64,000 bases of DNA from Spirochaetia bacterium (GTDB lineage Bacteria; Spirochaetota; Spirochaetia; WTKD01; G963693115), in assembly GCA_965226055.1 (NCBI GenBank), contig CBDDCA010000002.1:1-64000 (forward strand). Direction: 5' to 3'. The position numbers were made by a program, and so were the translations under genes. Under the pieces are notes generated by a model that was not told the DNA's origin, did not search any database, and was given only the letters and a program-made list of their open reading frames with translations. Numbering within the stretch: the first letter of the stretch is position 1; each line of letters opens with the position of its first letter. This document shows, piece after piece, positions 36,349 through 48,115 of the stretch.

Positions 36349-37806
36349 ATGTTTGATAAAAATAAAATAAGAAATTTTGTTAATGGTTCTTTTATTGATG
36401 CTAGTGCATCGGATGTACATGCACTATACAGCCCTGTAGATGGGTCAATAATAGCGAAAGGTCATTATTCTTCTTCAAAAGATATTGATGATGCTGTTAC
36501 CGTTGCGTCAGATGCACAAAAAAGATGGGCATTATTAACACATAAAAAACGTGCTGAAGTAATGTATAACTATCTCTTTCTTTTAAAAAAACATAGGGAA
36601 GAGTTAGCCGAAATATGTCATATTGAAAATGGAAAAACTATGGGAGAGGCACTTGCTGGTGCCGATAAAGCTATTGAGTTATGTGAGTTTGCAGCATCAA
36701 TGCCACAAATAGTATCTGGTGAAGTACAACAAGTGAGTAAAGGGGTGGTATGTGCTACTCATAGAGTACCGATTGGGGTTGTTGCTTCGATAACTCCATT
36801 TAATTTTCCTATTATGGTACCCCATTGGACAGTGCCAAATGCCCTTGTACTTGGCAATGCTGTTATTCTAAAGCCTTCGGAGCTTACTCCTTTGTCTGCA
36901 CTAAAGAGTGCTGAATTATGGAAAGAAGCAGGGCTTCCTGATGGATTACTCAATGTTATGGTAGGAGCAAAAGAAACAGTCGAGGCTATTTGTGATCATC
37001 CGAAAATTGATGGTGTAACATTTGTAGGATCAACTCCTATAGCAAAAATTGTGTATCAGCGTTCTTCTCAATCATTAAAGCGAGTCATAAGCTGTGGTGG
37101 TGCAAAGAACTATATTTTACTCAGTGAGCATGCACATCCACAGTCGGTACAAGACATTGTAGCAGCATTTTCTGGTATGTGTGGTCAACGTTGTATGGCA
37201 GCATCGGTACTTGTTACTATTGGTACACTTGATACGCAGTTGTCTGCTATTGTTTCTGCAGCAGAGAAACTTATTCCAGGAAGAGATACTGGTGCTATGA
37301 TAAGTAAACAATCTATAGAGAAGGTGTCAGCGTATCTTGATGAAGCACAAAGTCTTGGAGCAAAAATACTATTGGATGGAAGAAAGATAAAAAGTGAAGG
37401 GCATGAGCATGGATATTATATTGGTCCTTCTATTATTGATTGGCGAGGAAATGAAGATAAAATGCCTCTTGAAGAAATTTTTGGTCCTACTTTAGAAATA
37501 CTAGAAGCAGATTCACTGGAATCAGCATGTGCAATACAGCGAAAAACACCGTATGGAAATGCAGTTTCAATATTTACGCAAAATGGAAGAGAAGCAGTAG
37601 AAACAGTACAGCAGTGTAGTGCAGGAATGGTAGGGGTAAATATTGGCATCCCTGTCCCACGAGAACCCTTTTCTTTTGGTGGTATCAATGATTCTCGTTT
37701 TGGGCAAGGCGGTATTACAGGAAAGCCTATTGTAGATTTTCTGAGTGATATAATAAAAGTAACTACTAAATGGAATCCTGAAGATAAAAAAGATTGGATG
37801 AGTTAG
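36349..37806 (+). CDS. iolA: CoA-acylating (methyl)malonate-semialdehyde dehydrogenase
   Basis: ITPFNFP, KPSE, FVGSTPIA, GGAKN, GQRCMA, EEIFGP, GVNIGIPVP. Confidence 0.9.
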   Translation: MFDKNKIRNFVNGSFIDASASDVHALYSPVDGSIIAKGHYSSSKDIDDAVTVASDAQKRWALLTHKKRAEVMYNYLFLLKKHREELAEICHIENGKTMGEALAGADKAIELCEFAASMPQIVSGEVQQVSKGVVCATHRVPIGVVASITPFNFPIMVPHWTVPNALVLGNAVILKPSELTPLSALKSAELWKEAGLPDGLLNVMVGAKETVEAICDHPKIDGVTFVGSTPIAKIVYQRSSQSLKRVISCGGAKNYILLSEHAHPQSVQDIVAAFSGMCGQRCMAASVLVTIGTLDTQLSAIVSAAEKLIPGRDTGAMISKQSIEKVSAYLDEAQSLGAKILLDGRKIKSEGHEHGYYIGPSIIDWRGNEDKMPLEEIFGPTLEILEADSLESACAIQRKTPYGNAVSIFTQNGREAVETVQQCSAGMVGVNIGIPVPREPFSFGGINDSRFGQGGITGKPIVDFLSDIIKVTTKWNPEDKKDWMS

Positions 37807-37840
37807 AAATAAATCTATTAAAAACAATAAAGGAGAGCGT

Positions 37841-38911
37841 ATGGCATCTACATATGAACCATTAACACAAATGGTAAAAAATTTTCCGACACAGTTTTGG
37901 AATGATTCTTGTTCTTTATCTGAACTTAAGTATGCTATAGCAAGAGGAGCTACTGGAGCAACGACTAATCCAGTGATAGTAAAGACTGTGCTTGATACTG
38001 AATTTGCTAGTTACAAAAGTGAGCTTACAAAAGCTATAAGGAATAATGCTTCTGCTACAGAGGATGATATTACATGGCATATGATTGAGTATGCTGCAAA
38101 ATTGGGAGCAAAGCAATTTGAGAAAATATTTGATCCTCAAAAAGGAGTAGGACGTCTTTCTATACAAACTAATACAAAGTATTATAGAAATGCTCAAAAA
38201 TTAGTAGAACAGGCACTTCATTTTCATACTCTTGCTCCAAATATGCAAGTAAAATTGCCTGCTACAAACGCTGGTATAGAAGCTATTGAGGAAGTAACTT
38301 ACAGAGGAGTAAGTATAAATGCTACTGTATCTTTTACTGTTTCACAGGCTGTTGCTGTTGCTGAGGCAGTGGAACGAGCTTTTGCACGGAGAGTACAGGA
38401 ACAAAAGAGTAATAGTGAAATACATCCAGTATGTACATTGATGGTGGGAAGATTGGACGATTGGCTGAAAATAGTAGTTGCAAAGAAAAATCTTACTGTA
38501 GATCCAGAAGCTCTTGAATGGTGTGGGGTAGCAGCTATGAAGCAGGCATATAAGTATTATCAAGAAAAAGGGTATGCAACAAAATTATTATCTGCAGCAT
38601 ATAGGAATCATCACCATTGGTCACAATTTATTGGTGGAGATGTAATTCAGACTATTCCTTGTGGATGGCAAAAGCGTTTTAATGCAAGCAAAGTGCAAGT
38701 AACATCAAGAATGGATGATGAAGTACCACATGCCTATCTTAAGCAGTTATCTGCAATTTCCGAATTTAAGAAAGCGTATACTGTAGGTGGTATAAAGAAT
38801 CATAATTTTGATAGCTATGGGGCAACAGTGCGAACTCTTGTACAGTTTGCAAATGGATATGATGATTTAGTAAAGATAATTCGGTCTCATATGTTACAAA
38901 TGCCTTTTTAG
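37841..38911 (+). CDS. Transaldolase-family (class I aldolase) protein with atypical active site
   Basis: WNDS, GATTNP, VKLP Schiff-base Lys, INAT, VGR. Confidence 0.88.
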   Translation: MASTYEPLTQMVKNFPTQFWNDSCSLSELKYAIARGATGATTNPVIVKTVLDTEFASYKSELTKAIRNNASATEDDITWHMIEYAAKLGAKQFEKIFDPQKGVGRLSIQTNTKYYRNAQKLVEQALHFHTLAPNMQVKLPATNAGIEAIEEVTYRGVSINATVSFTVSQAVAVAEAVERAFARRVQEQKSNSEIHPVCTLMVGRLDDWLKIVVAKKNLTVDPEALEWCGVAAMKQAYKYYQEKGYATKLLSAAYRNHHHWSQFIGGDVIQTIPCGWQKRFNASKVQVTSRMDDEVPHAYLKQLSAISEFKKAYTVGGIKNHNFDSYGATVRTLVQFANGYDDLVKIIRSHMLQMPF

Positions 38912-38936
38912 TGATAGTATAGAGTATAGTTATAGT

Positions 38937-39836
38937 ATGTTTTCTGCGAAAGAAGTAAAAATAGGGGTTGCTCCTATAAATTGGTCAAATGATGATCTCC
39001 CTGAACTTGGTGGGCATATTTCCTTTGAGACATGTATTAAAGAAATGCAAGAAGCTAGATTTGAAGGCTGTGAAGTAGGGAATAAATTTCCACGTGACCC
39101 CTATATATTAAAAGATATGCTCGCTGAAAGAAATCTTCAAGTGTGTAATCAATGGTTTAGTTTTACTTTGAGTACAGAACCACTTTCTATAGTGAAAGAA
39201 CGGTTTATTGCACTATTAGAATTTTTACGTGTATTTGATGTTACTGTAGTAGGAGGAGGAGAGGTTGGCACAAGTATACAAGGGAAACCTCTTCCTTTAT
39301 TTGAAGCGAAGCCAAATAATTCTTTAGAGCAATGGCGAAATATTAGTGTAGGATTGGAAGAGTTAGGAAAAATTTCAAAAGAGGAATATGGTATATCGCT
39401 GTGTTTTCATCCTCATCTTGGTACTTGTATACAGACTATGGAAGAGACAGAGCTTTTACTGGATAGTACAGATCCAGATACTGTGTTTATCAATTATGAT
39501 TGTGGACATATATATGCGAGCGGTGATGATCCTCTTGCTTGTTTGCAGAAAATAGGGAATCGTGTGCGTCATGTGCACTTGAAAGATGTGAGAAAAAATA
39601 TTCTTGATAAAGTAAAAGACGAGCATTTATCGTTTCTTGATGGAGTAAAGAGAGGATTGTTTACTATTCCTTCTGATGGTGATATACAATGTATTCCTCA
39701 AATTATACAAGAGTTAGCGAAATTACGCTATAAAGGGTGGCTAGTGATAGAAGCAGAGCAGGATCCTTCACTGGCTCCTCCTTTAGAGTTTGCAAAGCGT
39801 AGTCGAGAGTTTATTTATCAACACACTGGATTATAA
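38937..39836 (+). CDS. iolE: Myo-inosose-2 dehydratase
   Basis: APINWSNDDLPELG, GCEVGNKFP, HVHLKDVR, IEAEQDP. Confidence 0.94.
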   Translation: MFSAKEVKIGVAPINWSNDDLPELGGHISFETCIKEMQEARFEGCEVGNKFPRDPYILKDMLAERNLQVCNQWFSFTLSTEPLSIVKERFIALLEFLRVFDVTVVGGGEVGTSIQGKPLPLFEAKPNNSLEQWRNISVGLEELGKISKEEYGISLCFHPHLGTCIQTMEETELLLDSTDPDTVFINYDCGHIYASGDDPLACLQKIGNRVRHVHLKDVRKNILDKVKDEHLSFLDGVKRGLFTIPSDGDIQCIPQIIQELAKLRYKGWLVIEAEQDPSLAPPLEFAKRSREFIYQHTGL

Positions 39837-39899
39837 TTTATTTATCATTATTCTTTTTTCTTACTTTATCAAAATGTATGGCTCTATGTACTGGTAGCG

Positions 39900-40622
39900 G
39901 TGAGTGCAGTAATTTCAGGTATGTCTAAAAGTGGGTTTCAAGGCATCAATCTTATTCCTTCTTTGGTACTTATGTACTTTTTTGGGGTAAAAGAGACTAT
40001 TGCTTTTTCTTTGTTATTTTTTATTATTGGTGATATATATGCAGCATTTCATTATCGGAAATCTGTAGATGTCTCCATTTTTGTTGTATTTATTCCATGG
40101 GCTATAGTTGGGGTAGCAATATCTGGTATATTTGGCATGTTTGTATCAGAGAAAGTACTTACTCTTGTAATTGTAGCTATTATCATATACTTGCTTATTG
40201 TCACTATTTTACAAGAATCTCGACAGAAAGAAGGTATAGTGTATGCAGAATCTTCTTCTCCGTTTGTGTTGTTGTTCTATGGTGTGTTTGCTGGGGTTGC
40301 TTCTACATTGGCTAATTTTGGAGGCACAGTTATTGCTATATATCTGCTTAAAAGAAAGCTCTTAAAACGGTATATTATTGGTACAGGAGCTTTTGTATTT
40401 CTTAGCATGAATATACTAAAAACAGGGGTATTCTATTTTATGTGGGAGGCATATACTTTAGAAACAGTATTATTGGCTATAGGGTTTTGGCCTTGGTGCA
40501 TTGTAGGGGCAGTATTAGGAAGAAAAATATCAGATAAAATTCCAGAGAAATTGTATCGTTGGGTGCTGATTACATTAATTTCTTTCTCTTGTTTGATACT
40601 GCTCTTAAAAGAATATATGTAA
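39900..40622 (+). CDS. TauE/SafE family exporter (start may be further upstream, ATT 39840)
   Basis: GMSKSGFQG, GDIYAAFHYR, STLANFGG, NILK; about 8 TM helices. Confidence 0.85.
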   Translation: MSAVISGMSKSGFQGINLIPSLVLMYFFGVKETIAFSLLFFIIGDIYAAFHYRKSVDVSIFVVFIPWAIVGVAISGIFGMFVSEKVLTLVIVAIIIYLLIVTILQESRQKEGIVYAESSSPFVLLFYGVFAGVASTLANFGGTVIAIYLLKRKLLKRYIIGTGAFVFLSMNILKTGVFYFMWEAYTLETVLLAIGFWPWCIVGAVLGRKISDKIPEKLYRWVLITLISFSCLILLLKEYM

Positions 40623-40655
40623 GCAATGCTATTTGTGGTATACTTATTATAGTGA

Positions 40656-42158
40656 ATGCTAGAGCTTAGAAATATTAGTAAAACATTTCCTGGTATAAAC
40701 GCATTGAGCAATGTTACGCTTACTGTTCGTAAGGCTTCTGTACATGTAGTATGTGGAGAGAATGGTGCAGGAAAATCTACTGTTATGAAGATTCTGAGTG
40801 GAGTATATCGTCCTGATTCGGGAAATATATTTTTACATGGAAAAGAAATTTTTATCAAAACTCCTATAGATGCAGAGAAATATCGTATATCTATGATATT
40901 TCAAGAATTAAATTATATTCCAGAAATTACTATTGCTGAATTTTTATATCTAGGGCATTGGCCTACAACATTTCTTAACACTATTGATTGGAAATCAATA
41001 CAAGAGAATGCAAAACAAATTCTTAAAAATGAGCATATTCCTTTTTCTTTTGATACTAAATTAAAAGATATTTCTATCTCTACTATTCAATTACTTGAAA
41101 TAATAAAAGCTACTGTTATTGGTAATTCTGATATTATCATTATGGATGAGCCAACTTCTGCTATTACTAATAATGAGGTGGAACTTTTGTTTAAGAAGAT
41201 AGAAACTCTTACATCACAAGGAAAAAGTATTATTTATGTATCTCATAAAATGGAAGAAATTTTTCAAATTGCAGATGATATTAGTATTTTACGAGATGGG
41301 TTTCTTGTTTCAAGTGGAGACAAAGCGAGCTTTACAATGGATAGTGTTATTACCCATATGGTAGGACGAGAGATATCACGTGAATATCCTAAAAAAGAAG
41401 TGCCTCAAGGGAATATGCTTTTGGAAGTAAAGGGTATTTCAAATGAGGCATTTCACTCTGTTTCTTTTTCGTTAAGAGAAGGTGAGATTATAGGCTTTGC
41501 TGGTTTGATAGGAGCAGGCAGAACAGAAGTGGCCAGAGCTCTCTTTGGGTTGGATGCATATGCTCATGGTGCTGTGTATGTGAGAAATCAGTCTGTGAAT
41601 ATACGTAATCCTATTGATGCCATTCAACGAGGCATAGTTATGCTCTCTGAAGATAGAAGACGGTTTGGGCTTATTCCTATAAGAAGTGTAAAGGAGAATA
41701 TCACATTGTCATCTTTACAACAGTATATACATCATGGGAAACTTCATAAAAAAGCAGAAGAAAAAGATGTGAACAATTTATGTGAAAAAATGAATATCAA
41801 AACTGCATCTATTGATGTGAATGTTGATGTGCTCAGTGGAGGTAATCAACAAAAAGTAGTGTTTGCAAAGTGGTTGCTACAAAATCCTAGTATTTTTATC
41901 ATGGATGAGCCTACAAGAGGGATAGATGTTGGTGCAAAATATGAAATGTACACATTGATGCAAGAATTAGTACAGCAGAAGAAAGGAATACTTATGATCT
42001 CTTCGGAACTTCCAGAGTTGATGGGTATGTGTGATAGAATTTATGTACTCCATGAAGGAACTATCACTGGAGAAATACGGAGACATGATTTTAATTCTGA
42101 AACTATTATGAAATATGCTACAGGATTAGAGAGAACTGCAGTAAAGGAATATGTATGA
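40656..42158 (+). CDS. CUT2 sugar ABC transporter ATP-binding protein (RbsA/MglA-type)
   Basis: GENGAGKST, MDEPT twice, LSGGNQQK. Confidence 0.95.
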   Translation: MLELRNISKTFPGINALSNVTLTVRKASVHVVCGENGAGKSTVMKILSGVYRPDSGNIFLHGKEIFIKTPIDAEKYRISMIFQELNYIPEITIAEFLYLGHWPTTFLNTIDWKSIQENAKQILKNEHIPFSFDTKLKDISISTIQLLEIIKATVIGNSDIIIMDEPTSAITNNEVELLFKKIETLTSQGKSIIYVSHKMEEIFQIADDISILRDGFLVSSGDKASFTMDSVITHMVGREISREYPKKEVPQGNMLLEVKGISNEAFHSVSFSLREGEIIGFAGLIGAGRTEVARALFGLDAYAHGAVYVRNQSVNIRNPIDAIQRGIVMLSEDRRRFGLIPIRSVKENITLSSLQQYIHHGKLHKKAEEKDVNNLCEKMNIKTASIDVNVDVLSGGNQQKVVFAKWLLQNPSIFIMDEPTRGIDVGAKYEMYTLMQELVQQKKGILMISSELPELMGMCDRIYVLHEGTITGEIRRHDFNSETIMKYATGLERTAVKEYV

Positions 42159-43126
42159 AAAGATTTGTGTTATATGTTCAAAAGATAAGCAGAGAGTACA
42201 GCATCTATATTGTATTATTGATACTGTTTATACTTTGTACTTTTTTGAATGAAAATTTTCTTACAGTAGGAAACTTAACTAATATTTCTCGTCAAATATC
42301 AGTGACAACAATATTGGCATTTGGAGCTACTATTTTGATTATTGGTGGGATGCTTGATTTATCCTGTGGTTCTGTTCTTGCATTGTCAGGAACTATCTCG
42401 GTATATGTGTATACACAAGGAGGAACACTGCTATCAGCGGTATTTGTTGGGATATTGGTAGGGGTGCTGTGTAATTTTGTGAATGGTATCTTAGTACAGG
42501 TATTTCATGCTCCGCCTTTTATTGCAACACTTGCTATGCTCACTATGGCAAGAGGAGCTGCCTTACTCTTTACAAAAGGGAGAGATATATATCAAATTGG
42601 CAATTATACGGTATTAGGACAAGGAAGTATTGGAATTATTCCTATTCCTGTAATAGTCATGCTAGCTATTATGGGGCTAACATGGTATATGTTATCTCAT
42701 ACACGGTTTGGGAGATCTCTGTATGCAATAGGAGGAAACGAAGATGCAGCCAGAGTATCAGGTATCAATACAGGCAAAATTAAGATAATGGCATATCTTA
42801 TAAATGGAGTTTTTGTTGCTATAGCTGGTATGTTATTTATGGCAAGAATAAATGTAGGAAGCCCTAATGGTGGTGTTGGCTATGAGTTTGAAGCATTGAC
42901 TGCCGCTATTATTGGAGGAACAAGTTTTTCGGGAGGTATTGGGTCTGCTTCTGGAACACTTGCAGGAGCATTTATAGTTGGATTCTTAAACAATATTATG
43001 AATTTATTAGGGATTGATTCATATTTACAGCAAACGATAAAAGGAGCAATTATCGCATTAGCGGTGATATATGATATATATGCAAAAAATAAAAGAGTAT
43101 CTAAAAAATTAGGAAAACAGGTATGA
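42155..43126 (+). CDS. CUT2 sugar ABC transporter permease (RbsC-type)
   Basis: LDLSCGS, PPFIATL, TRFGRSLYAIGGNEDAARVSGI, IIGGTSFSGG. Confidence 0.95.
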   Translation: MKRFVLYVQKISREYSIYIVLLILFILCTFLNENFLTVGNLTNISRQISVTTILAFGATILIIGGMLDLSCGSVLALSGTISVYVYTQGGTLLSAVFVGILVGVLCNFVNGILVQVFHAPPFIATLAMLTMARGAALLFTKGRDIYQIGNYTVLGQGSIGIIPIPVIVMLAIMGLTWYMLSHTRFGRSLYAIGGNEDAARVSGINTGKIKIMAYLINGVFVAIAGMLFMARINVGSPNGGVGYEFEALTAAIIGGTSFSGGIGSASGTLAGAFIVGFLNNIMNLLGIDSYLQQTIKGAIIALAVIYDIYAKNKRVSKKLGKQV

Positions 43127-43206
43127 TATAGTAATATTACGTAAAGTAAATTAAGAATGTAATATACTATACTATATATAGTATTTTCATGTATAAGGAG
43201 GTTTAT

Positions 43207-44229
43207 ATGAAAAATATAGTTTCTATGATAGTGATAGTAGCAGCCTTGTTGATAGTTGCTATTAGTTCTGTATCTTGTGTTCGTAATGATGTAAAACAGA
43301 AAGAGGAAACACAAGAATCATCTGATCAATCTGTTAAGAGTGATGCTATGCAAAAAACATATCGTGTAGCTTTTATTGCAAGAGCACAACAAGATTCGTT
43401 TGCCGCGTGGTTGGTTAATTCACTGGAGCGTGTTGCTAAACAAGAATATCCTGATATAAAACTTGATATTTTTGATAGTCAAGCTGATGATGCAAAAGAG
43501 AATGCGTTTATTGAAAATGCTCTTACCAATAAGTATGATTTGATTATAGTACAGCCAAATAATACTGAAGCTCAGCGTCCCTATATTGAAAAAATTGTCG
43601 CTGCTAATATTCCTGTAATCACGACTAACCCTAGAATTGATGTTGCTGGAGCAAATACGGTGGATGCTGATCCGTATGAACAAGCTGCTATCAATGCAAG
43701 AGTGGCGTTGCAGCAGATTCCTCAAAATGCCAATGTGGTCATTCTTAATGGCCCTCCAGGAAATACACATGCTATTAAAAGAAGGGAAGCGTGGCAAAGA
43801 GAGTTTTTAGACAAAAGAAATGATGTAACAATAGTAGGGGAACAAATTGCAAATTGGAATAAAGATGAGGCTATACGATATATGGAAGATTGGGTGCAAG
43901 TAAATCCTAAAATTGACGCTGTCATTTCTATGAATGATAATATGGCAGCGGGTGCTATTGAAGTGATAAAGGACAATAAAGCGTATGAGAATATATTAGT
44001 GTATGGAGTTGATGGAACAGTTGAGGCTGCATTGCTTATACAAGAGGGAAAGTTTACTTCTACATCTTTACAAAATGCGTATACATTAGCAGAAGTAAAT
44101 CTTCAGGCGGCTCATGATTTATTGACAGGAAAAGTTGAAAGATTAGATATAGATATAAAATGTCCACTATACGATAGTAGTAATGTTGATGAACTTATTC
44201 AGATACATAAAGAAGCAGGAGCTTTATAA
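43207..44229 (+). CDS. Sugar ABC transporter substrate-binding lipoprotein (RbsB fold)
   Basis: Lipobox SVSC, periplasmic binding protein type I pattern (NDNMAAGA, YGVDG). Confidence 0.92.
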   Translation: MKNIVSMIVIVAALLIVAISSVSCVRNDVKQKEETQESSDQSVKSDAMQKTYRVAFIARAQQDSFAAWLVNSLERVAKQEYPDIKLDIFDSQADDAKENAFIENALTNKYDLIIVQPNNTEAQRPYIEKIVAANIPVITTNPRIDVAGANTVDADPYEQAAINARVALQQIPQNANVVILNGPPGNTHAIKRREAWQREFLDKRNDVTIVGEQIANWNKDEAIRYMEDWVQVNPKIDAVISMNDNMAAGAIEVIKDNKAYENILVYGVDGTVEAALLIQEGKFTSTSLQNAYTLAEVNLQAAHDLLTGKVERLDIDIKCPLYDSSNVDELIQIHKEAGAL

Positions 44230-44258
44230 TATCATATTTTAATTGCTAGGAGGAGTAT

Positions 44259-45284
44259 ATGCAATCATTAGTATTAGAAAAACAACATTCATTATCATTG
44301 AGAGATTTTGAAGTACAGGAAGTGCTTGGAGCTACTGATGTAAGAATTCAGATAAAGGCCTGTGGTATATGCGGGAGCGATGTACATTATTTCAAAGAGG
44401 GAAGAATTGGTGATTTTATAGTACGAGAACCAATGATACTTGGACATGAGGCTTCAGGAGTGGTAATTGAAGTAGGGGAGCAGGTGCGTTCTGTAAAGGT
44501 AGGAGAGAGAGTATGTATGGAGCCAGGTATACCCAATTATATGTCAACAGAGTCTTTGGAAGGAAACTATAATCTTGATGATGATGTACGTTTTTGGGCA
44601 ACTCCTCCTGTACATGGAGTGATGAGGGAGAGCGTGGTGCATCCAGAAGCATTGACATTTAAGCTGCCCGATAATGTCAGCTTTCATGAAGGAGCAATGA
44701 TTGAGCCACTTGCAGTAGGAGTTGAAGCAGCAAAAAGAGCTCATGTGTGTCCTGGCGATATAGCACTTGTCACTGGAGCTGGCCCTATTGGAATTTTAGT
44801 GGCACTGAGTGCACTTGCAAGTGGCTGTAGTAAAGTAGTCATTTCTGATCTATCTGATATAAAACTGAACATTGCATCTCAGTTTGAAGGAATAGTAATA
44901 TCAACCCCTACTGATCTTAGTGAGACAGTAAAGAGAGAAACAGAAGGAAAAGGAGTGGATATATTATTTGAGGCAAGTGGAAGTACAGTATTGTTTCCTG
45001 ATATATTTAGGTTGTGTAAAAAAGCATCTCGTGCAATTCTTGTGGGAATGTCAAGTTCTCCAGTATTACTTGATGTTCCGCTTATACAAACAAGAGGGAT
45101 AAAAATTGATACTGTGTTTCGATATGTAAATTGTTTTAAGCGTGCGTTACAATTAGTTTCATCAAAAAAAGTACAAATAACAAGTCTTATCAGTAAAACA
45201 TTTTCTTTTGCAGACTCAGTTGAAGCATATCATTTTGCAGCAGAAGGGAGAGAAGATATAGTGAAAGTGATGATAGATTTTTAA
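44259..45284 (+). CDS. Zn-dependent polyol dehydrogenase (xylitol/sorbitol dehydrogenase-like)
   Basis: [31 protein letters not shown]; structural-zinc cysteines absent. Confidence 0.9.
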
Positions 45285-45304
45285 GAAGCAATAAAAGGAA
45301 CGAT

Positions 45305-46300
45305 ATGAAAAAAATTGCTCTCATAGGTGCTGGTTTTATTGGAAATATTCATGCTCAAAGTCTTGTTTGTCATCCAGAGGTGGATTTTAAGTATATATTT
45401 GATGTTGATTCTGATCGAGCAAAGCAATTAGCACAACAATATAACGTAAAAGCTGTTGATATTACTACGATTATGGAATCTGATGTTGATGCTGTGCTTA
45501 TAGCTTCGTCTACAAATACACATGCAGATATTTGTAAACTAGCAGTAAAATATGGCAAAGGGATATTATGTGAGAAACCTATTGACTTACAATTAAAGAA
45601 AGTACGTACTATATGTGACATAGTAGAAAGTTCTGGTGTTCCTAATATGGTAGATTTTAATCGTAGGTTTGATGCGAGTCATAGTGCGTTAAAACAAGCT
45701 CTCATGCAGAAAAAAGCAGGGAATATTGAGATTATTCAGATAACAGCCCGCGATCAATCTCCTCCTTTGTTGGAATATGTGAAAACATCTGGAGGACAGA
45801 TGCGTGATCAAACAATACATTTTTTTGATTTATTGTGTTATCTGAGTGATGATTATCCTGTTGAAATATATGTTATGGCAGATGCTTTGATAAACAAGGA
45901 AATTGGAGCTGCAGGAGACACAGATACTGCTGTTATTTCACTTCGTATGTCATCAGGGGCTTTGGCTCTTATAGATTGTAGCAGACGTTCTCCTTGTGGG
46001 TATGATGAGCGAATTGAGGTTATGGGATCTAAAGCTATGCTGGAGTCTAAACGTCAAATGCATCGGCATTTTGCACAGTATGAAGGCAATTATGTCAAAA
46101 GTGATGGGTTTTATGATAGCTGGTATGAAAGAATAAAAGATACATACTACAATGCACTGGATATGTTTGTACATGTGTTGTATGGAAAAAAGACTTCAGT
46201 ACCAATTCCTGATTTTAAGGATGGGTTACATACACAGATTATTGCAGAGTCAGCGACTAAATCGTTACGGTTGGGGCGACCTATAAAAATACAGTATTGA
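45305..46300 (+). CDS. iolG: Gfo/Idh/MocA oxidoreductase, inositol 2-dehydrogenase-like
   Basis: GAGFIG, CEKP, FNRRFD, SGG..RDQTIHFFD, GYDERIEV. Confidence 0.75.
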   Translation: MKKIALIGAGFIGNIHAQSLVCHPEVDFKYIFDVDSDRAKQLAQQYNVKAVDITTIMESDVDAVLIASSTNTHADICKLAVKYGKGILCEKPIDLQLKKVRTICDIVESSGVPNMVDFNRRFDASHSALKQALMQKKAGNIEIIQITARDQSPPLLEYVKTSGGQMRDQTIHFFDLLCYLSDDYPVEIYVMADALINKEIGAAGDTDTAVISLRMSSGALALIDCSRRSPCGYDERIEVMGSKAMLESKRQMHRHFAQYEGNYVKSDGFYDSWYERIKDTYYNALDMFVHVLYGKKTSVPIPDFKDGLHTQIIAESATKSLRLGRPIKIQY

Positions 46301-47104: not shown

Positions 47105-48115
47105 TTATGTTTTTCTTTCTTGTATAAGCGTCATTGCAGAGCTAATAACAATTTCGTCAGTAGTACAGCCTCGTGATAAATCGCTTACGGGAGCTGCAAG
47201 TCCTTGTATTATTGGTCCGTAGGCAGAAGCAGAGCCGAAGATTTGAGTGCTTTTGTAGCTTATATTTGCACTGGCAAGATTAGGAAAAATAAGAGTGTTG
47301 GCTTTTCCTGCTACCGATGAATGAGGAGCTTTGAGCTGTGCTACCTCAGGACGAAGTGCAGCATCCATCTGTAGTTCACCGTCAATGAGTAATGCTGGGT
47401 GATTTTTCTGCATCTCTGTGGCTGCTTTTTGTACGACATCTACTTCTGGATGTTTGGCAGATCCTTTTGTAGAAAAAGATAGAAACGCTATTTTTGCTTC
47501 TGCTTCAAGATATACTCTACATGTATCTATTGCAGCGAGAGCTATCTGTACTAATTCTTCTGAGTTAGGATGTGGGATAATTGCACAATCTGAGAATACA
47601 AGGCATCCTTGTTCTCCTAAATGAGTATTGGGATGTTCAATAATAAAGGCAGAGGATATAAGTTTTAATCCAGAAGCTACTCCAATTACCTGTAATGCTG
47701 CACGTAACACATCAGCAGTCGAAGTGATAGCTCCTGCAATCATTGCATGGTATTCTTCTTTTGCTACGAGTGCAGTTGCAAAGTAAAGAGGGTTTTTCAT
47801 GGTAGCATATGCAGTCTCTTCATCAACATTTTTATGCTTTCTTTTTTCATAAAAGAAATGAGCATAATCTTCTAGTCTTGTATCTGTTTCACTATCAATT
47901 ATTTCTGTCTTGTGTTCATTGAGATGAATTGAATAGCTATCTACTGTTTTTGAAATGGTGTCTTTATTTCCTATAAGGCAGATATGTGAAACTATGTTTT
48001 TTTCTTGTAACAGAGCAGCTGCTTTCAATACACGTTCATCACTACTTTCAGGGAGCACAAGACTCCTCTGCATTGACTGGGCTTTTTGTATTATTTTTTC
48101 GCTAAATTGTGTCAT
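47105..48115 (-). CDS. pta: Phosphate acetyltransferase
   Basis: LSFSTKGSA, IDGELQMDAA, GPIIQGLAAPVSDLSRGC. Confidence 0.96.
   Translation of the reverse strand: MTQFSEKIIQKAQSMQRSLVLPESSDERVLKAAALLQEKNIVSHICLIGNKDTISKTVDSYSIHLNEHKTEIIDSETDTRLEDYAHFFYEKRKHKNVDEETAYATMKNPLYFATALVAKEEYHAMIAGAITSTADVLRAALQVIGVASGLKLISSAFIIEHPNTHLGEQGCLVFSDCAIIPHPNSEELVQIALAAIDTCRVYLEAEAKIAFLSFSTKGSAKHPEVDVVQKAATEMQKNHPALLIDGELQMDAALRPEVAQLKAPHSSVAGKANTLIFPNLASANISYKSTQIFGSASAYGPIIQGLAAPVSDLSRGCTTDEIVISSAMTLIQERKT

Follow-up and report, generated by a model that had tools for sequence, protein, structure and literature searches.

What would an enzyme of the transaldolase fold do in a gene cluster for the degradation of myo-inositol? 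The question is raised by a 64,000-nucleotide stretch of DNA from a Spirochaetia bacterium (assembly GCA_965226055.1, contig CBDDCA010000002.1, positions 1 to 64,000; hereafter the window), in which nine open reading frames (ORFs) lie at 36349-46300, all on the + strand and separated by 20-63 bp or overlapping by 4 bp. One of them encodes a divergent protein of the TAL/FSA fold (hereafter the TAL), and its gene is located between those for an IolA-like dehydrogenase and the dehydratase IolE. In the canonical pathway, as represented by IolG, E, D, B, C, J and A of B. subtilis, malonate semialdehyde goes to IolA. All steps of this pathway can be assigned in the present genome (G000), which differs by carrying the TAL gene in addition, and most orthologous clusters elsewhere differ by the absence of IolC and IolJ. 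Gene content, synteny and co-occurrence, together with the fold and the residues of the active site, lead us to infer, with a rough probability of 0.55, that the TAL subfamily is devoted to a late step in the catabolism of inositol and would cleave unphosphorylated 5-dehydro-2-deoxy-D-gluconate (DKG, the product of IolB), in this organism in parallel to IolC and IolJ.

The association with inositol genes is evident in the neighbourhoods of TAL orthologs. A set of 89 loci, comprising 10 from species genomes and 80 from metagenomes (the best 80 of 580 relatives) minus one locus, L015, that is nearly identical to the window, was probed with the Iol proteins of the present genome and of locus L023. 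Matches to iolD were found at 22 of the 89 loci, to iolE at 20, to an IolA-type aldehyde dehydrogenase (ALDH) at 19, and to iolB and iolG at 18 each, with the iolB count rising to about 25 if a second KduI/IolB type is included. At the 38 loci whose flanks reach 10 kb or more, the corresponding counts are 16, 16, 13, 13 and 16, and 18 loci carry iolB or iolD. An iolC-like gene occurs at a single locus (1/89, and 1/38 with long flanks) and an iolJ-like gene at none (0/89 and 0/38). Of the 22 loci that combine TAL with iolD, 21 have no IolC-like gene, and none of the 22 has iolJ. De novo clustering of the neighbouring ORFs ranked iolD (27 loci), ALDH (22), iolG (21) and iolE (21) as the most recurrent neighbours, followed by a LacI regulator (18), IolB (16), ATPases of ATP-binding cassette (ABC) transporters (13), short-chain dehydrogenases/reductases (SDR; 9), Zn-dependent alcohol dehydrogenases (Zn-ADH; 9) and the second KduI/IolB type (about 8, often directly 3' of TAL). 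Clusters of PfkB kinases, class II aldolases or dihydroxyacetone (DHA) kinases did not recur among these neighbours.

Nine loci bring together iolB, iolD, iolE, iolG, IolA and TAL, and eight of the nine contain no iolC or iolJ. Judged by gene content, the TAL is the only candidate in those kinase- and aldolase-free clusters for the conversion of DKG to malonate semialdehyde. A link to iolB, D, E, G and A in clusters that mostly have no IolC, IolJ or DUF2090 is the pattern expected if the TAL catalyses this conversion. At locus L023, for example, the gene order is LacI, iolB (338.7 bits), TAL, iolD (920.5 bits), iolE-like and iolG (465.1 bits). The ALDH that adjoins TAL elsewhere is a true methylmalonate-semialdehyde dehydrogenase (MMSDH/IolA), with 553.3 bits at L018 and 483.9 bits at L105 against a cut-off of 448.5, and pairs of TAL and IolA stand without other nearby iol genes at L016, L018 and L019. 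When the loci were sorted by context, with the window and seven rows selected through iolD subtracted, 29 of 89 had iolB or iolD, 9 had only iolE, iolG or IolA, and 35 were too short to judge. A quick tree, for which the careful search was unfinished, scatters iol contexts across the whole TAL family and groups the window TAL with Spirochaetota TALs that reside in iol clusters (SH-aLRT 91). We also observed that a fusion of RpiB/LacAB and AP_endonuc_2 domains (438 amino acids (aa); L048 6187-7503, - strand) recurs near TAL orthologs at four loci.

Whole genomes were compared by sampling 401 from the phylum of genome G001 and 401 from that of the window. In the G001 phylum, iolD is present in 27 of 401 genomes. 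TAL accompanies it in 5 of the 27 and an IolC above cut-off in 9; the two do not occur together in any of them, and 13 lack both. The five genomes with TAL and iolD (G001, G037, G173, G213 and G275) yield no match to the IolC model at E <= 1e-40 (the best IolC-model score in G001 is 124 bits against a cut-off of 300), no DUF2090 over its cut-off and, in the four that were tested, no Dak1. The Dak1 search covered five genomes and was positive only in the present one; Dak1 is a weak marker of aldolase activity because other kinases can phosphorylate DHA. Each of the five G001-phylum genomes encodes a classical transaldolase or a transaldolase fusion as well, and the TAL is therefore an extra gene there. 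As a control, the genomes that do have IolC were considered: in 19 of 19, IolC and iolD share a contig and are no more than 9.4 kb apart, and the absence of IolC from TAL-iolD loci is therefore informative.

In most of the G001-phylum genomes with neither gene, the iolD homolog has a lower score (811-847 bits), which nonetheless exceeds the IolD cut-off. Two IolD-like genes, at L121 8966-10894 (G265) and L122 8994-10922 (G093), stand alone without nearby iol genes in genomes without TAL or IolC, while at a third such locus the iolD homolog resides within a partial iol set. The lone IolD-like clade may differ from IolD in function.

In the phylum of the window, TAL occurs in 8 of 401 genomes and iolD in 16, and the two coincide in 4 genomes versus about 0.3 expected (Fisher p = 1.1e-4; p = 0.005 when counted by genus). 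Genomes reached via TAL alone (G001-G005 and G850) have iolD in six of six cases. In the phylum of G003, TAL is found in 2 of 401 genomes. The chromosome-titled record of G003 itself has TAL at its start (L024 911-1972) and an iolD fragment at its end (C1 3458030-3458965), which would be neighbours if the record is circular. Another spirochaete of the same class as the window, G752, has no TAL ortholog and no IolC match at E <= 1e-40 in its genome; its locus L124 (7025-18105) carries iolG, iolD and a 491-aa IolE-like gene, followed by genes for phosphoglycerate kinase, a glyceraldehyde-3-phosphate dehydrogenase-like protein, malic enzyme and a LarA-like protein.

The TAL protein exceeds the PF00923 gathering score of 27 by a wide margin (Table 1), and all NCBIfam transaldolase and FSA models score it far below cut-off (PRK03343, the best, 103 bits versus 367; talAB 68.4 versus 396.2; fsa_talC_mipB 41.7 versus 245.95). 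It has thousands of relatives at 50-65% identity, and all of the at least 8000 candidates that were scored passed. Their names are generic or absent, and the ESM Atlas likewise offers only generic 'transaldolase' cluster names. On sequence comparison the TAL falls into a separate subfamily of the transaldolase/FSA fold, one that is widespread and as yet without a name. An AlphaFold2 model has a mean predicted local distance difference test score (pLDDT) of 95.9, and its top Foldseek match is the transaldolase of N. gonorrhoeae (3clm/7bbx; template modelling (TM) score 0.81, 21% identity). E. coli TalB and the N. gonorrhoeae enzyme share the fold of the TAL (TM scores of 0.81 and 0.69 were recorded for the pair) at 20-25% identity.

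Residues were mapped by aligning the TAL with TalB and FsaA of E. coli, as taken from the annotated K-12 record, with TalB numbering that agrees with PDB entry titles, and conservation was evaluated over 101 family members. The Schiff-base lysine is K138 (TalB K132, FsaA K85), and D22 (D17/D6), N43 (N35/N28) and T162 (T156/T109) are likewise retained, as are both anion-binding arginines, R204 (TalB R181) and R255 (TalB R228). Two positions depart from the known enzymes. Q109 replaces the catalytic glutamate E96 of TalB and aligns with Q59 of FsaA, whereas M201 replaces both F178 of TalB and the catalytic tyrosine Y131 of FsaA. All eight of these TAL residues are invariant in 101 of 101 members, as are the family-specific W20, N21 and S23; H259 is nearly invariant, as is the pair R183/R184 within a 13-residue insertion relative to the classical enzymes. 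The glutamate of classical transaldolases is therefore absent from every member, and of the Gln59-Thr109-Tyr131 triad of FSA the glutamine and threonine are kept. According to the accessible part of one study, this FSA triad holds the catalytic water, and swapping its residues with those of TalB turns aldolase into transaldolase activity and vice versa (PMC13259622). FsaA differs further in being a short type of 220 aa, as opposed to the long type of about 350 aa to which the TAL belongs. Its Gln-Thr-Met active site sets the subfamily apart from classical transaldolases and from FSA alike, and Q109, M201 and the family-specific residues are consistent with a changed substrate.

How might such an enzyme act on DKG? 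When read from C6, DKG shares with fructose the D-threo configuration at the bond that would be broken. IolJ is a homolog of fructose-bisphosphate aldolases because of this shared configuration, and for the same reason DKG would fit a donor site of the TAL type. In the proposed mechanism, K138 would form a Schiff base with the C5 keto group of unphosphorylated DKG, the C3-C4 bond would be cleaved, and malonate semialdehyde would be freed for the adjacent IolA-like dehydrogenase. The remaining three-carbon dihydroxyacetone unit would then be moved to glyceraldehyde-3-phosphate (GAP) to yield fructose-6-phosphate (F6P), or else be released as DHA. We tentatively favour transfer to GAP, as the TAL retains the fold and the two anion-binding arginines and its gene has no accompanying DHA kinase, although we would not call this mode probable. 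Release of free DHA by an FSA-like aldolase reaction appears less likely again, and stays in consideration because Gln109 is FSA-like. The R204/R255 pair could bind the carboxylate of the substrate or the phosphate of the acceptor. Since both acid/base residues known from the fold are absent, the proton relay may be new, perhaps involving H259, N21 and S23, or may be provided by the carboxylate of the substrate.

In many bacteria, the TAL would by this mechanism take the place of IolC plus either IolJ or DUF2090. In the present organism, the operon in the window would provide uptake, the IolG-like dehydrogenase, IolE, the TAL and the IolA-like dehydrogenase, and an operon on contig 5 would provide IolD, IolB, IolC and an IolJ-like aldolase, such that DKG could exit either by the ATP-dependent route to dihydroxyacetone phosphate (DHAP) or by the TAL route. 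A plausible benefit of the second exit is the direct, ATP-free formation of F6P for anabolism.

The initial annotation had gone further and proposed that this organism degrades inositol without IolC or IolJ, with the TAL replacing both. Much of the description on which it was built is borne out: the co-oriented order iolA - TAL - iolE - tauE - sugar ABC - dehydrogenase - iolG-like is as annotated, and profile searches and tblastn detect no iolB, iolC, iolD or iolJ in the window, so that the cluster itself has neither kinase nor aldolase. The prediction that iolB and iolD reside elsewhere in the genome also proved correct. However, a search of the whole assembly (2.25 Mb, 6 contigs, 89% complete) found that the only iolD and iolB genes are flanked by iolC and a class II aldolase gene on contig 5. 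This co-oriented array encodes a 264-aa protein without assignment, a GalM-like epimerase, IolD (856 bits, above the cut-off of 715), IolC (299.1 bits versus 300), IolB (177.5 bits versus 205), a class II ketose-bisphosphate aldolase taken as IolJ-like (TIGR00167, 221.4 bits, above the cut-off of 215.6) and an AP_endonuc_2 protein. By tblastn over the assembly, single copies of iolD, iolC, iolB and iolJ-like reside on contig 5, while contigs 3 and 6 hold only weak paralogs, and iolA-like, TAL, iolE and iolG-like are single-copy genes in the window. The two loci must therefore cooperate. Together they hold a full iol set, in which IolE and IolD exceed their cut-offs, and IolB, IolG-like and IolA-like fall below theirs with these models nonetheless the best. 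This genome has the canonical kinase and aldolase plus the TAL as an extra enzyme, and a strictly kinase-free pathway in this organism is accordingly very improbable.

A second TAL/FSA gene, of the short type, is present on contig 6, and the window TAL is thus not the sole member of its fold in the genome. In a comparison aimed at co-regulation of the two loci, only AT-rich near-matches were seen between the 240 bp preceding iolA and the upstream regions of the contig-5 array, with no palindrome in common. A gene for tRNA-Leu(GAG) (L014 7001-7086, - strand) occupies the intergenic region on contig 5 that separates the array's first gene from a gene for a DUF2157 membrane protein.

Several observations weigh against cleavage of DKG as the role of the TAL. 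With iolC and the IolJ-like aldolase gene next to its iolD and iolB, the present genome has no gap to fill. Three of the four genomes in its phylum that have TAL and iolD also have iolC (G000, G690 and G698; the exception is G644). In G690 a single array contains iolJ-like, iolC (342.8 bits), iolB, TAL, iolA, ABC genes, iolD, iolE and two iolG genes, and in G698 the TAL-type and iolC-type clusters are on different contigs. The initial annotation had anticipated that TAL orthologs would accompany iolA, B, D and E and exclude iolC and iolJ; the association holds across phyla, and the exclusion holds in the G001 phylum (none of five) and fails in that of the window (three of four with both). Even in the G001 phylum, the mutual exclusion of TAL and iolC over all 27 iolD-positive genomes is not significant (p = 0.11). 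A post hoc restriction to the 15 genomes with iolD of at least 880 bits (TAL in 5, iolC in 9, both in none, neither in 1) gives Fisher p = 0.002, and all of these statistics include related, non-independent genomes and many incomplete metagenome-assembled genomes (MAGs). In addition, at 16 of the 54 informative loci a flank of 10 kb or more contains no iol gene, four genomes (G485, G525, G532 and G636) have TAL without iolD at E <= 1e-150, and in the first three of these the TAL is a lone gene amid housekeeping genes. Finally, both known acid/base catalysts are missing, and a sequence of this kind cannot by itself distinguish a transaldolase from an aldolase or another enzyme. The link between the TAL family and the iol pathway is therefore strong without being exclusive, and the TAL can supplement the kinase and aldolase as well as stand in for them.

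Some of these observations lend themselves to another explanation, in which the TAL is an auxiliary sugar-phosphate transaldolase that performs the ordinary exchange among F6P, sedoheptulose-7-phosphate, erythrose-4-phosphate and GAP, and rebalances triose and hexose phosphates during growth on inositol, which yields DHAP and acetyl-CoA. The fold and the retained lysine, aspartate, asparagine, threonine and arginines would suit this function, as would the presence of TAL alongside complete canonical iol sets in G000 and G690, the lone TAL genes in G485, G525 and G532, and the finding that TAL is the only PF00923 gene detected in G644. However, a classical transaldolase would not be expected to have glutamine in place of its catalytic glutamate in all 101 members, nor to score so far below every transaldolase equivalog model. 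Moreover, 10 of the 11 genomes checked, all except G644, have other PF00923 genes (a short type in G000 and paralogs in G485, G525, G532 and G636), and this explanation leaves the step from DKG to malonate semialdehyde without an enzyme in the eight complete clusters and in five genomes that have no IolC, no IolJ in the cluster and no DUF2090. We therefore regard it as unlikely. Genomes G485, G525 and G532 (Spirochaetota family f19) each contain 5-7 PF00923 genes, several being open frames of about 360-440 aa with 78-128 bits, in what looks like an expansion of divergent TAL/FSA paralogs.

One locus raises a different possibility. L099 contains iolG, iolE, iolD, iolB, iolA, TAL and, beside the TAL, a true IolC (377.6 bits), with no IolJ-like match and no aldolase-sized ORF immediately downstream. 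This arrangement also counts against action on unphosphorylated DKG, and would be explained if the TAL were a class I aldolase that cleaves phosphorylated DKG (DKG-6-P) to DHAP and malonate semialdehyde, as an analog of IolJ or DUF2090 that still needs the kinase. A point against it is that the known TAL/FSA-fold enzymes take donors whose C1 hydroxyl is free and are not known to accept 1-phospho-ketoses. The accessible portion of one report indicates that the known DKG-6-P aldolases, IolJ and DUF2090, were recruited from different folds (PMC9007349), and another recruitment would fit this precedent. Nevertheless, a kinase-dependent aldolase is hard to reconcile with the 21 of 22 TAL-iolD loci that have no IolC-like gene, with the five TAL-iolD genomes that yield no IolC-model match at E <= 1e-40, and with the operons of G000 and G690, which already carry an IolJ-like aldolase. 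We judge this explanation to be the least probable of those that assign the TAL a substrate other than DKG itself.

The remaining genes of the window cluster are listed in Table 1, with family calls from Pfam and NCBIfam profile searches and scores compared with model cut-offs. A scan of the cluster for promoters and terminators gave nothing exceeding shuffled controls, and its reading as an operon therefore rests on co-orientation and short gaps.

Table 1. Genes of the inositol cluster and two further genes of the window, with the profile matches on which their assignments are based
Position	Strand	Assignment	Length (aa)	Profile match
36349-37806	+	IolA-like CoA-acylating (methyl)malonate-semialdehyde dehydrogenase	485	PF00171 379 bits; best model MMSDH/IolA TIGR01722 422.6 bits (cut-off 448.5)
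37841-38911	+	Divergent TAL/FSA-fold enzyme (the TAL)	356	PF00923 TAL_FSA 140.5 bits
38937-39836	+	IolE, myo-inosose-2 dehydratase	299	TIGR04379 330.1 bits (above cut-off 290)
39900-40622	+	TauE/SafE-family anion permease	240	PF01925 89.5 bits
40656-42158	+	Sugar ABC ATPase (Rbs/Xyl type)	500	PF00005, two domains; xylose/ribose/arabinose ATPase models 513-526 bits, all below cut-off
42155-43126	+	Sugar ABC permease	323	PF02653 140.7 bits; RbsC-like 249 bits
43189-44229	+	Periplasmic sugar-binding protein	346	PF13407 177.3 bits
44259-45284	+	Zn-dependent polyol or inosose dehydrogenase (medium-chain dehydrogenase/reductase family, Zn-ADH)	341	PF08240 and PF00107; best NCBIfam L-idonate 5-dehydrogenase 175.8 bits, IolM 143.6 bits, both below cut-off
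45305-46300	+	IolG-like Gfo/Idh/MocA inositol dehydrogenase	331	TIGR04380 306.5 bits (cut-off 355)
47105-48115	-	Phosphotransacetylase		PF01515 344 bits
50652-52226	+	Protein with weak Pallilysin beta-barrel match	524	26.4 bits

The IolG-like protein is 35% identical to the IolG of L023, which passes its cut-off. The cluster is flanked by housekeeping genes, with ffh, rimM and trmD upstream, and dapB and pta downstream on the opposite strand. The phosphotransacetylase gene, just downstream of the cluster and beside dapB, may encode an enzyme that carries the acetyl-CoA made by IolA to acetyl-phosphate, although its position is perhaps coincidental. The Pallilysin domain, weakly matched further downstream, is known from spirochaetes, in agreement with the assignment of the near-identical L015 to Spirochaetia. 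Window proteins are 93-99% identical to those of locus L015, and L015 is also the only one of 90 TAL loci probed in which a TauE gene is found near TAL; the permease is therefore specific to this lineage and lies outside the conserved module.

The TauE gene bears on a further alternative, that the TAL acts on some other anionic ketose. This could be sulfofructose, with TauE exporting a sulfonate and the ALDH oxidising sulfolactaldehyde, or a ketose derived from another cyclitol or polyol by way of the ABC transporter and the Zn-ADH. Published clusters for sulfofructose transaldolases reportedly contain a trio of transaldolase, aldehyde dehydrogenase and TauE-type exporter that resembles the window, and the nine loci each at which SDR and Zn-ADH genes recur near TAL could likewise reflect another polyol. 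The TAL-IolA pair at L018 (568-10520, from a Spirochaetaceae MAG) is surrounded by GntR and LacI regulators, a sulfatase, an Ldh_2-family dehydrogenase, GDPD, a HAD hydrolase and a Gfo/Idh/MocA oxidoreductase, a context that is possibly tied to a sulfated or phosphodiester-linked inositol or sugar. However, TauE accompanies TAL only in the lineage of the window, and the Pfam and NCBIfam searches of the nine cluster genes found no sulfoquinovosidase or aldose-ketose isomerase domain among them. The partnering ALDH belongs to the MMSDH/IolA type, the sulfofructose transaldolase of known structure is a remote, short-type relative (32.7 bits), and the main conserved neighbours of TAL are iolB and iolD, whose product is DKG. 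Taken together, these points make another ketose a rather unlikely substrate, somewhat less so than phosphorylated DKG and a little more so than the sugar phosphates of an ordinary transaldolase.

The sulfofructose transaldolase (BmSF-TAL, 8bc2-8bc4) was cited in the initial annotation as a parallel. The parallel of concept stands: the donor is an unphosphorylated anionic ketose, a dehydrogenase receives the aldehyde that is formed, and a TauE-type permease is encoded in the cluster. A close sequence relationship does not. BmSF-TAL is a short type of 218-226 aa that matches the TAL with 32.5-32.7 bits over only about 75 residues (TAL residues 101-175), and its subfamily and active-site triad differ. 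The likeness is one of analogy, not of shared family membership.

A precedent for the replacement of an enzyme at the DKG cleavage step is the fusion of IolC to DUF2090, which the accessible part of the report describes as the commonest DKG-6-P aldolase solution, first inferred from comparative and fitness data (PMC9007349). Both DUF2090 and the TAL would be non-orthologous replacements at this step; according to the same portion of that report, DUF2090 is LacD-like, fused to the kinase and active on a phosphorylated substrate, whereas the TAL is unfused and usually has no kinase nearby. Class II aldolases have been described at the DKG-6-P step in a gut anaerobe, again as far as the accessible text extends (PMC13311982). 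In the available portions of the literature searched, only phosphorylative solutions to this step are described, namely IolJ, IolC-DUF2090 and class II aldolases, and papers on 'transaldolase-dependent' pathways concern sulfoquinovose or unrelated subjects. We found no publication that links a transaldolase to inositol catabolism in a search that mostly did not reach subscription journals and excluded supplements, and an earlier description is therefore possible.

Returning to the TAL as a DKG-cleaving enzyme, the interpretation given in the initial annotation is wrong for this organism as it was stated, and is probably right about the role of the enzyme family. Inositol is a major carbon source from plants, soil and diet, and the cleavage of DKG is still a step at which pathway predictors leave gaps. 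Of the 26 inositol utilisers in the GapMind study, as judged from its accessible part, 8 lacked both IolJ and DUF2090 (PMC9007349). It is conceivable, albeit not something we would presume, that a DKG transaldolase defines a kinase-free branch of inositol catabolism, which many bacteria from soils and sediments would have as their sole route and some spirochaetes as a parallel one. If the proposed function is correct, the TAL would represent a new enzyme activity, that of a TAL-fold enzyme on unphosphorylated DKG, and its Gln/Thr/Met arrangement would be a third active-site solution in a fold that is heavily used in biocatalysis. F6P would enter anabolism directly and the ATP spent at IolC would be saved, and the gap at the DKG step would be filled for many uncultured Acidobacteriota-type, Spirochaetota and other bacteria.

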